DNA of 64,000 nt, from NCBI GenBank assembly GCA_015055505.1, contig SVIB01000001.1, positions 6,563 through 70,562 on the forward strand. Reading direction: 5' to 3'. The DNA comes from Clostridiales bacterium (lineage in GTDB: Bacteria; Bacillota; Clostridia; Christensenellales; Borkfalkiaceae). The stretch's first letter is position 1. Each line of letters opens with the position of its first letter. Below, in pieces: positions 10,463 through 23,517 of this stretch. The position numbers and the translations under genes are program-made. Under the pieces are notes generated by a model. The model saw only the letters and a list, made by a program, of their open reading frames with translations. It was not told the origin of the DNA and ran no database searches.

Positions 10463-10538
10463 GGGAGCATAGCTCAGTTGGGAGAGCATCTGCCTTACAA
10501 GCAGGGGGTCATAGGTTCGAGCCCTATTGTTCCCACCA
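10463..10538 (+). tRNA. tRNA-Val (anticodon TAC)
   Basis: It folds as a cloverleaf: acceptor GGGAGCA/TGTTCCC, anticodon loop CTTACAA, T-loop GGTTCGAGCCC, and an encoded CCA. Confidence 0.9.
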
Positions 10539-10541
10539 TCT

Positions 10542-10616
10542 GCGGGAATGGCTCAGTGGTAGAGCGTCACCTTGCCAAGGTGAACGTCGCGAGTTCGAAT
10601 CTCGTTTCCCGCTCCA
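10542..10616 (+). tRNA. tRNA-Gly (anticodon GCC)
   Basis: It has acceptor GCGGGAA/TTCCCGC, anticodon stem TCACC/GGTGA with loop TTGCCAA, T-loop GTTCGAATC, and an encoded CCA. Confidence 0.9.
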
Positions 10617-21717: not shown

Positions 21718-22065
21718 ATGAAAAAAAGATTTGTAAAACTTTTAGCAGTATTGCTTACTGCTTGTACGCTTATTTGTTGTTCGTTCGTCGTTACGGGTTG
21801 TTCGTCTTCAGATGAATGTAAAATCACTTATCAACTTGCTCTTCCCAGTGGAATAAACGGTTCGATAAAGTCAACTAATCAAACGGTTACTTACGGTAAG
21901 AAATATTCATTATACGTTCCCTCTTGTAGCAGTTCTAATTACGAATTTGAGGGTTGGCAAATAAAAGGAACGAAGACGATGGTTCCGTTAAACGGTAACC
22001 AATGGGGATACAAGAAAAACGTAACTTTAGTTGCGGTGTGGGGTGTTTATACGGGTAACTACTAA
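21718..22065 (+). CDS. lipoprotein with one InlB B-repeat (Flg_new/Listeria-Bacteroides repeat)
   Basis: It has a lipobox (VVTGC) and the pattern ITYQL...YEFEGWQ...VTLVAVW. Confidence 0.6.
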   Translation: MKKRFVKLLAVLLTACTLICCSFVVTGCSSSDECKITYQLALPSGINGSIKSTNQTVTYGKKYSLYVPSCSSSNYEFEGWQIKGTKTMVPLNGNQWGYKKNVTLVAVWGVYTGNY

Positions 22066-22072
22066 AATTTTT

Positions 22073-22193
22073 AAAGGCTTATATACTTCGCTATCCGTCG
22101 TTACTGCAAAGTGTTCTTGACTGGGATGACCAACAAGGTCTATCCCATCCAATACCACTTTGCGAGCCTTGGTTAGCTCGCATCTAAGCCTTT
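22073..22193. repeat. structured module A, copy 1 (121 nt, candidate ncRNA)
   Basis: It aligns without gaps to 22311-22431. It has a closing stem AAAGGCTTA/TAAGCCTTT and nested stems that show compensatory changes. Confidence 0.75.
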
Positions 22194-22310
22194 AAAACGG
22201 TACTCGAACAAGGTGGTATTAGCGAGCAACCTCAGGTTGCTGACCAACAAGGTCTACCAAATCTTTTCGGGCTCACGAGCCTTGGTGTGCTCGCATCTAA
22301 GCCTTTATTC

Positions 22311-22431
22311 AAAGGCTTATCTACATCGCAAAAGAGCGTTACTGCTTTAAAGTCTAAACCCCGATGACCAAAGAGGTCTATCGTGTCTTATCCTTTAAAG
22401 CGAGCCTTCTTTTGCTCGCATCTAACCCTTT
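22311..22431. repeat. structured module A, copy 2 (121 nt, candidate ncRNA)
   Basis: It has the same length and architecture as 22073-22193. Confidence 0.75.
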
Positions 22432-22465
22432 AAATTGTGCTCGAACAAGGTGGCGTATGGATGCA

Positions 22466-22616
22466 ACGGCGTCGCAAATCGGCTTTTTGTCAGCGAATTA
22501 CTAAAAGTAATCCGCAAGACTTTTCAGCCGTTTGCTCCTTTTCAAACAAAATCTTTTACAGCGTAAAATCTTTTGTTTGAGGTTTTTATATTGACTAAGA
22601 ACTATGGCGGTAGCAA
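22466..22616. repeat. structured module B, copy 1 (about 151 nt)
   Basis: It begins ACGGCGTCGCAA and ends TGGCGGTAGCAA. It holds two hairpins, and a paralog lies about 166 nt downstream. Confidence 0.7.
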
Positions 22617-22631
22617 ATCGAGTGGAGCGTC

Positions 22632-22782
22632 ACGGCGTCGCAATACGATTTTTTGTCAACCGTTTGCCTATTGTCAAACGGTAAGACTTTGCAATCGGTT
22701 GCTCCTTTTCAAAGAAAATCTTTTGATGAACAAAATCTTTTCTTTGAGTTTTAGTGCGCTATATGAACTGTGGCGGTAGCAA
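22632..22782. repeat. structured module B, copy 2 (about 151 nt)
   Basis: It has the same end sequences as copy 1, and the hairpins are conserved in structure but not in sequence. Confidence 0.7.
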
Positions 22783-22934
22783 TTAGGATGAAACCTTAGG
22801 TTGCTTTTTTTGAAAAAATTTTCACTTTCTCTCTTTCTCGATAAGAAATTTTGCTATATCATTATATAATATATATATTATACGCGAGAAATTAAAAAAA
22901 ATTAAAAAAATTTTTATTTACCTATGAAAAACAG

Positions 22935-22963
22935 TTGACAAAGCCTATTGAATAATGTATTAT
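22935..22963 (+). promoter_or_regulatory. sigma-A promoter of the S10 operon
   Basis: It reads TTGACA, a 17-nt spacer, then TGtTATTAT (extended -10), preceded by a very AT-rich UP-like tract. Confidence 0.6.
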
Positions 22964-22967
22964 TTAT

Positions 22968-23160
22968 GGGCTGTGTTTAATATGGGTTGAGATGGGAAGT
23001 TACTTAAACCCCGCTTGTTTCAGGCTCCGGAACCTGATATTAAGTAAGGAAGATAATTCCCGTTGACAAATGTGAGGGTATAACCCTTGCGACTAACCAT
23101 GCCCAAAGAGTAGAGATATCATTCGCAAAAACACAGCGGCGAGTGATTTTTTTATTGTTT
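22968..23160 (+). promoter_or_regulatory. structured 5' leader or ncRNA upstream of rpsJ
   Basis: A closing stem GCTGTGTTT/AAACACAGC encloses hairpins CAGG..CCTG, AGGGT..ACCCT and GGGAA..TTCCC. A T7 tract follows. Confidence 0.4.
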
Positions 23161-23217
23161 AGGTATGACACACACGGCAATGTTGACAATATGTTAGTAT
23201 AAAACGGAGGTAACACA

Positions 23218-23517
23218 ATGGCAGGTCAAAAAATTAGAATTAAGTTAGCGGCTTACGATCACAAAATGGTAGATCAAGCAACTGAAAGAATCGTAGAAAC
23301 GATGAAGAAAGCAGGCGCTAAAATAAGCGGTCCTATTCCTCTTCCTACTGAAAAGGAAATCGTAACGATTCTTCGTTCGCCACACAAGTACAAGGATAGC
23401 AGAGAGCAGTTCGAGATAAGAACTCATAAAAGACTTATCGACATTTATTCAACGAACGCTAAAATCCTTGACAGCATACATCTTCCCGCTGGCGTAGACG
23501 TAAAAATCAAACTTTAA
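23218..23517 (+). CDS. rpsJ: 30S ribosomal protein S10
   Basis: The sequence is conserved ([18 protein letters not shown]) and it is the first gene of the S10 operon. Confidence 0.97.

Follow-up and report, generated by a model that had tools for sequence, protein, structure and literature searches.

REP, REPIN and attC sequences are the main bacterial examples of repeats in which selection sees a folded single strand rather than its sequence. REPINs are doublets of REP sequences which form hairpins and are mobilised by RAYT (TnpA_REP) transposases in Pseudomonas and Enterobacteria. To our knowledge, the hairpin repeats of these three kinds are known almost only from Proteobacteria, and we know of no description of a REP/RAYT system in Clostridia. 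Other repeats, among them BOX, RUP, ERIC/IRU, Correia and the bcr repeats of Bacillus cereus, are short, structured and mosaic, present in many intergenic copies and often co-transcribed with their neighbours. REP, ERIC and Correia elements can stabilise, process or terminate transcripts.

REPINs carry compensatory changes, occur in clusters and form arrays that depend on the replichore (PMC3116915). The elements of the IS200/IS605 type transpose as single strands at the lagging-strand template, and a survey of Y1 transposases names Clostridia for the IS200-type subclass only (PMC6006769).

Here we describe a repeat, termed the A element, that was encountered in a stretch of 64,000 nt of clostridial DNA (the window; all positions refer to it unless a locus is named). 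The A element is a previously undescribed hairpin-forming interspersed repeat of uncultured gut Christensenellales.

Composition of the repeat array

The array lies in a 1,152-nt gap between the gene for a 115-aa lipoprotein and rpsJ (23218, + strand). It is a mosaic of 780 bp that spans positions 22066–22845, and its parts are listed in Table 1. The minus strand of the window gives the more stable fold of copy 1. Tails equivalent to the one behind this copy are found 3′ of many other family members and their stems covary (GCAACG..CGTTGC, GGAGCG..CGCTCC, GCAACT..AGTTGC). Identical short forms, and the tail hairpins ahead of them, recur at other loci.

An earlier, sequence-only reading of the region had noticed related pieces in the 117 nt between the two full copies, and these can now be recognised as a truncated third copy that has kept its 3′ arm only. 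The same reading placed CTCGAACAAGGTGG 3′ of both copies, where we also find it. This box, TGACCAA..AGGTCTA and GCTCGCATCTAASCCTTT are confined within the 64-kb window to the array region, far above chance. The statement that no ORF covers the region needs some qualification, since mechanical ORFs of 43–47 aa do overlap it, but none of these has any support.

Table 1 Features of the array and its surroundings (window positions)
Feature	Position	Strand	Remarks
Upstream gene, 115-aa lipoprotein with Flg_new repeat	21718–22065	+	TAA stop at 22063–22065, 4 nt ahead of the first repeat
A element copy 1, full-length (TTTAAAGGCTTA ... TAAGCCTTTAAA), 127-bp imperfect hairpin	22070–22196	.	139.6 bits (covariance model, minus strand)
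Tail module	22197–22240	.	Box CTCGAACAAGGTGG (22203–22216), then small hairpin GCAACC-TCA-GGTTGC (22226–22240)
Truncated A copy (short form)	22241–22307	.	Apical GACC-N5-GGTC and 3′ arm only
A element copy 2, full-length	22308–22434	.	137.4 bits (covariance model, minus strand)
Second tail	22435–22468	.	Box CTCGAACAAGGTGG at 22440–22453 and interrupted tail hairpin (GGATGCAACG)
Two tandem B modules	22466–22782 (~22466–22631, ~22632–22782)	.	Per copy: variable hairpin, 18-bp AU-rich hairpin, T-run
Terminal tail-like hairpin, then TTTTTTT	22783–22812	+	Read from sequence; absent from terminator-scan list
rpsJ promoter (TTGACA-17-TATTAT at 22935–22963) and conserved structured 5′ leader	22846–23217	+	Outside the repeat array

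The AU-rich hairpins of the B modules, with their T-runs, are at 22542–22580 and 22709–22747. T-runs in the array are limited to these and to the last hairpin, which with its seven T residues looks like a terminator marking the end of the array. B is a second dispersed repeat family of ~165 bp. Its variable hairpins read GCGAATTACT-AAA-AGTAATCCGC in one case and CAACCGTTTG-N8-CAAACGGT in another, and copies were seen near A arrays in at least eight other loci (L085, L073, L035, L056, L089, L062, L033 and L054), where they may point with A or against it. In the window, B has apparently been inserted into a tail hairpin, and in L062 apparently into the apical loop of an A element. One array in L082 ends (at ~2800–2890) with overlapping 11-nt units (GCAACGTCACGTTGC CGTCACGCTCC CAACGTCACGTTGC ...), the tail hairpins being themselves able to form micro-arrays.

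Structure and covariation of the A element

The consensus of the A element is a single long imperfect hairpin of ~125 bp. At its base, the P1 stem pairs TTTAAAGGCTTA with TAAGCCTTTAAA and is followed by a short extension. P2 is a stem of 7 bp whose middle five positions covary freely (AAAAG/CTTTT, ACACC/GGTGT, TAGCC/GGCTA, GTGGG/CCCAC and others), and P3 and P4 are likewise variable stems. Read on the bottom strand, that is, antisense to the neighbouring gene, the freely covarying stems separate three conserved regions that are unpaired or asymmetric: the base, GGCTTAGATGCGAGC / GCGAAGTATATAAGCC; the middle, an asymmetric internal loop in which AAGGCTC lies opposite CAGTAACG; and the tip, ATAGACC-N5-GGTCAT. 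The GACC-N5-GGTC core of the tip is conserved, yet covaries to GAAC/GTTC and AACC/GGTT.

Most of the pairing that had been read from the two copies alone is borne out. Segments 22073–22193 and 22311–22431 align without gaps, with 83 of 121 positions identical. The closing stem AAAGGCTTA/TAAGCCTTT is present, copy 2 having TAACCCTTT with one mismatch; the internal stems GCAAAGTG/CACTTTGC and GCTTTAAAG/CTTTAAAGC lie where they had been located; and nested hairpins surround GACC-N5-GGTC in both copies. The compensatory changes reported between the copies are also seen on the family consensus structure, where nine pairs differ in both partners yet still pair, one differs in one partner only and two are broken. 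Both full copies fold far better than shuffled sequences (z = −5 to −9), and the strand that folds better is the reverse complement of the one that had been read.

A local hairpin, GCGAGC-N8-GCTCGC, proposed as conserved in both copies, was rejected. Its N8 covaries instead with the 5′ arm (CGC-AAAAG-.. with CTTTT-GC), a pairing that covariation favours, and the outer two pairs of the local hairpin would break in many family members.

Covariation was very strong when the alignment was enlarged. RNAalifold gave 39 pairs, with compensatory changes in 24. In 100 distinct copies, 93.9% of the cells were paired, compared with 74.3% in column-shuffled alignments and 30–42% with slid partners; changes on both sides occurred in 34 of the 39 pairs, and the covariation score was 0.474 versus 0.142. 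A long hairpin made of two inverted conserved ends and a variable but compensating spacer, in many extragenic copies, is a feature shared with REPINs.

Dispersal of the family and variation between strains

A scan of the genome collection with the pattern GAGCC-N7-GCTYGCATCTAASCC found homologues at 66 loci in ~17 MAGs, many of which gave several loci. The MAGs are labelled Christensenellaceae, Clostridia or Clostridiales and were sampled from the gut of goats, sheep, deer and humans. With 61 copies as input, a covariance model gave 102 matches in 555 kb. The sequence-only reading had proposed a novel structured RNA. The structure is real and is kept by compensatory changes, but a discrete RNA gene with two paralogous modules is not supported, as the modules belong to a dispersed repeat of ~100 copies. 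A repeat such as BOX or RUP had been named there as the opposing outcome; the outcome is indeed of that kind, although the family itself is not a described one.

A single genome may hold copies at separate loci that are 95–99% identical, and some lineages have their own subfamilies. Orthologous sites differ in subfamily or have an extra copy (for example, L061 and L062, or L075 and L082). Mosaic and truncated copies are common and arrays vary between strains. In two syntenic relatives, L007 and L008, the array is absent and a plain terminator takes its place. The gene order AspRS, YqeY, VanZ, Flg_new, rpsJ is common to these loci and the window, and the only intergenic part that they have in common is 22846–23217, the rpsJ promoter and leader. 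Locus L012 is identical to the window. L011 has an identical upstream protein, followed by an array with an extra tail-plus-truncated unit and a different right flank. This flank (L011, 1530–2187) holds a 43-aa ORF and, from its translation, the apparent N-terminus of an asparaginyl-tRNA synthetase, neither of which is found in the window. Either two arrays have truly been rearranged at the L011 junction or the assembly is chimeric at the repeat.

Rfam searches of the whole window at gathering thresholds returned only two tRNAs, which are adjacent genes at 10463–10613. With E-values up to 10, positions 21900–23300 gave nothing better than E = 1.2, and the weak matches were to unrelated families, so that the earlier failure to place the region in a known RNA family holds. 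A phage origin was considered and dropped, as two scans of viral contigs returned no match or only chance ones (12, confined to the 16-nt pattern). There was no match by blastn in the phage and plasmid collections, and a metagenome scan returned 11 short contigs only, which added nothing. In the literature on Christensenellaceae or Firmicutes, we found no described repeat of the A-element kind.

Placement and orientation

The position of the elements with respect to genes is very regular. In 77 of 78 cases the element is co-oriented with the ORF that it abuts. When whole arrays with an upstream ORF in view are counted, 65 of 66 are co-oriented, and in 44 of the 66 the edge of the model match falls between −8 and +10 nt from the stop codon, which is often the TAA inside the element's own TTTAAAGG. 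Most of the other arrays start directly after the T-run of a terminator, including that of a 5S rRNA (L081) and riboswitch-type terminators (L033 and L034). An array is often found between the stop codon and the native terminator. The A element itself has no T-run after its stem on either strand and therefore does not have the form of an intrinsic terminator.

In L033 (~2130–2230) and L034 (~190–290), a riboswitch-like leader with its terminator lies directly upstream of an A element. The two sites are orthologous across two MAGs, yet carry different A subfamilies.

GC skew shows the gene-sense strand to be the G-rich one at 63 of 65 loci, and elements of opposite orientation never share an 8-kb locus. 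Gene orientation and replication orientation are confounded on 8-kb fragments, because ~86% of coding sequence (in the window) is on the G-rich strand. At loci where most genes face the other way, the skew is still weakly positive in eight of nine, which hints at a replication component.

As to the target, the upstream flanks contain no fixed oligonucleotide that we could find and are only T/A-rich or end in TAA. A TTAA or TA target-site duplication was considered and rejected, since the variant flanks are inverted complements (TTGAC...GTCAA, TGAAC...GTTCT, AAAAAGG...CCTTTTT) and not direct repeats. The outer bases covary as a stem and hence do not represent a target-site duplication.

Strand preference and wobble pairing

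The bottom strand folds better than the gene-sense strand in 58 of 61 copies with RNA parameters (mean −51.8 and −42.5 kcal/mol, respectively) and in 60 of 61 with DNA parameters (−29.4 and −23.3). The consensus energies from alifold are −32 for the bottom strand and −17 for the other. This energy gap is due mainly to two positions. One is an invariant G.T on the bottom strand, which is A.C on the gene-sense strand; at the other, the bottom strand has G.U in 48 copies, G-C in 17 and A-U in 16, an RNA-like pattern. We had considered the difference of ~9 kcal/mol as a sign of a minus-strand RNA, but dropped this since it stems mostly from the two positions.

In the remaining 37 pairs, G.U/U.G occurs in 35 and A.C/C.A in 30 of ~3,200 cells, ~1% each, without strand asymmetry. 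As a control for wobble pairing we used the rpsJ 5′ leader of the same genomes, ~700 nt away (a tRNA set was not used, having n = 4 only). There, ~47 of 468 cells are G.U (~10%) and three are A.C (<1%). The general mark of a structured RNA, G.U far above A.C on the transcribed strand, is thus not seen in the A element. Since G.U is as rare as A.C, neither strand has the wobble tolerance that is typical of RNA helices. A pattern of Watson–Crick pairs only is what selection on DNA complementarity would give; it would also arise in young copies that decay by transitions.

Strong covariation by itself is therefore no proof of RNA. The symmetric scarcity of G.U and A.C, when set against a true RNA leader nearby, provides a simple discriminator.

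Proteins encoded near the elements

All-versus-all clustering was carried out on 424 flanking ORFs, with Pfam searches on representatives of the five largest clusters. These gave housekeeping families only (ABC ATPases, LRR surface proteins, Der GTPase, sugar epimerases and BMC shell proteins). Among the 66 flanks (8 kb each), neither a transposase nor a recombinase was seen to be linked with the repeat, and no recurrent recombinase-like family appeared beside them in the clustered flanks, as judged from representatives of the five largest clusters. A scan of the 66 loci and the window for Y1 motifs found one IS200-type tnpA only (in L043), which is not flanked by the repeats.

This gene (L043, 1–700, minus strand) encodes an IS200-type Y1 transposase with the motifs YHIVFAPKYR and DHIHML and has a typical left-end hairpin. 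It is inserted directly after a terminator T-run, 4 kb from A elements. Its end hairpin, CCACTCGC-TGA-GCGAGTGG, is unrelated to the A element, which does not match the end of this resident insertion sequence.

Comparison with described repeats

REPINs are the closest in overall form, being extragenic hairpins of ~100 nt with conserved flanks and a variable middle that is kept paired by compensatory changes; they are non-autonomous and present in many copies per genome and in tandem clusters (PMC3116915). The orientation of REPIN clusters depends on the replichore (PMC3116915), to which the bias of the A element for the G-rich strand may be likened, with the proviso that this bias is confounded with gene orientation. 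The A consensus, however, lacks REP palindromes headed by GT[AG]G, neither GTAG nor GTGG being found as a head. Only one arm of the element has a local palindrome, the rejected GCGAGC-N8-GCTCGC, which covariation does not support, and no RAYT was found in the sampled flanks of the A loci. Further, REPINs are described as random in extragenic space, whereas A copies directly follow stop codons or terminators and keep to one orientation.

The IS200/IS605 elements and their MITE derivatives (PATEs) similarly depend on hairpins and do not make a target duplication of the kind associated with terminal inverted repeats (PMC6006769). They also resemble the A element in having one orientation linked to the fork (63 of 65 A loci, confounded with gene orientation) and in a tendency to sit past the T-rich tails of terminators. 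They differ in having two separate subterminal hairpins, as against one hairpin of 125 nt, and in their conserved tetra- or pentanucleotide target, no counterpart of which was found for the A element. The A hairpins are moreover unrelated to those of the sole tnpA seen, in L043.

The attC sites and the Vibrio cholerae repeats are imperfect palindromes of ~120 bp that conserve structure over sequence, with strand asymmetry, and are positioned directly 3′ of an ORF in a fixed orientation (PMC5371416). In contrast to these, the A family has no R/L box consensus, detected integrase or cassette arrays, and the upstream genes are core genes. With BOX, RUP, ERIC, Correia and bcr, the A element has in common that it is short, structured, mosaic, multicopy and intergenic; it differs from them in that neither sequence nor Rfam searches gave a match, in lacking a target duplication of TA or TTTAT and in its fixed orientation, where they are found in both. 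The direct target-site duplication of classical MITEs with terminal inverted repeats (Correia, ERIC, RUP, bcr1) is missing from it. Thus, as the A family lacks at least one defining feature of each of REPIN/BIME, PATE and attC among those tested, we conclude that it is a new hairpin-forming interspersed repeat.

Origin of the A element

The A element is probably a non-autonomous mobile DNA element similar to REPINs and MITEs, in which the single-stranded DNA hairpin is the selected structure. Watson–Crick-only pairing, fixed orientation, variation between strains and absence in syntenic relatives argue for selection on the DNA hairpin of a mobile element. Wide dispersal, bursts specific to single lineages, the lack of a target duplication and the mosaic truncated copies also speak for it. 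By analogy with the systems above, a trans-acting enzyme whose gene lies elsewhere in the genome would recognise the folded single-stranded hairpin; a HUH/Y1 transposase of IS200/IS605 or RAYT type or a structure-specific recombinase would be candidates. Through this enzyme, the element would be copied or moved to T-rich sites just past stop codons or the T-runs of terminators, and the same analogy suggests that only one strand, as defined by the replication fork, would receive it. As new copies were inserted again and again next to older ones, and as unequal crossing-over and gene conversion acted on them, mosaic arrays that differ between strains would arise, made up of full and truncated copies, tail hairpins and B modules; 22066–22845 would be one example. 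Several points count against a mobile element. No linked transposase or recombinase was seen in the flanks, no conserved target oligonucleotide was found beyond T/A-richness and TAA, the orientation bias is confounded with that of the genes, and one pair has an RNA-like pattern. In addition, the extent of the conserved internal-loop sequence and the very precise abutment to stop codons are atypical of REP, REPIN and MITE sequences; they could reflect a host function. More tentatively, and we think this rather unlikely in its full form, the repeats may be substrates of an undescribed system of single-stranded DNA transposition or recombination in Clostridia, RAYT/REPIN-like or attC-like without the hallmarks of either. 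It would insert a folded 125-nt hairpin with conserved mismatches in one direction relative to the fork, at the first bases past stop codons and T-runs, and the host might have domesticated the hairpin where leading-strand genes end.

The same placement might instead be explained by a cis-acting RNA in mRNA 3′ UTRs, where the hairpin would stabilise, process or terminate the upstream transcript and the spread of the element would be secondary. The co-orientation of nearly all elements with a gene 3′ end (65 of 66 arrays), many of them adjoining the stop codon, and the conservation of structure by covariation fit this. Since many arrays, that of the window included, begin after the stop codon but ahead of a conventional terminator hairpin with its T-run, they should be transcribed, and from this position transcription within 3′ UTRs is likely at many loci. 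We nevertheless regard such a role as an improbable basis for the conserved structure. The gene-sense strand, which the transcript would carry, folds less stably than its complement (58 of 61 copies under RNA parameters, 60 of 61 under DNA parameters) and has A.C at two conserved positions, and G.U does not exceed A.C on either strand, unlike in the rpsJ leader. Several copies lie past canonical, 5S rRNA or riboswitch terminators, at which read-through should be low; no T-run follows the stem of the A element; and the element is wholly absent from syntenic relatives.

Two further explanations centre on the bottom strand. Folded, it could be an attC-like substrate of an unrecognised structure-specific, site-specific recombinase belonging to a clostridial system similar to integrons. 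A palindrome that is imperfect and as long as attC and the Vibrio cholerae repeats may be, stems that conserve structure over sequence, and asymmetric bulges and mismatches would agree with this. So would two further features: relative to the ORF ahead of the element, the antisense strand is the more stable one, and the element starts at or within this ORF's stop codon. Presumably it is also the bottom strand that lies on the leading-strand template, which is the arrangement in sedentary chromosomal integrons (PMC5371416). However, the base of the hairpin reads TTTAAAGGCTTA ... TAAGCCTTTAAA and has no R boxes of the form RYYYAAC/GTTRRRY. In the place of cassettes, core features precede the elements (a conserved syntenic lipoprotein gene, 5S rRNA, a riboswitch terminator, Der, ABC transporters), copies are dispersed singly over many loci rather than in ORF-attC arrays, and no recurrent recombinase-like family lies beside them among the representatives of the five largest neighbour clusters. 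We give this little credence. Least credible, with a very small chance of being right, is a multicopy family of small RNAs transcribed independently from the bottom strand (the minus strand of the window). This is the strand that folds best (−51.8 against −42.5 kcal/mol; alifold −32 against −17), and on it one pair varies between G.U, G-C and A-U and one G.U is invariant. Against it are the ~100 copies, nearly all antisense to a gene end, among which truncated and mosaic forms are common; no conserved promoter-like or terminator-like signal surrounds them, wobble pairs are rare outside the two positions and an Rfam match is absent.

As a mobile DNA hairpin, the A family would extend the biology of folded single-stranded DNA to uncultured gut Christensenellales. 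How an enzyme acting on single-stranded DNA is targeted could be learnt from the unusually strict placement of the family, which keeps to one orientation and to sites immediately behind stop codons or terminators. Because the repeats break metagenome assemblies and form strain-variable arrays, they are useful as markers and call for caution over the quality of MAGs.

The rpsJ leader

Beside the array, a conserved structured 5′ leader of ~255 nt was observed upstream of rpsJ (window 22935–23217; ~3745–4000 in L001–L010). Its promoter is near consensus (TTGACA-17-TATTAT). The leader has no match to an Rfam family. It contains several helices that covary or vary through G.U, and an attenuator-like hairpin with T-run (TCATTCGC...GCGAGTGA TTTTTTT), and may be an uncatalogued leader of the S10 operon.
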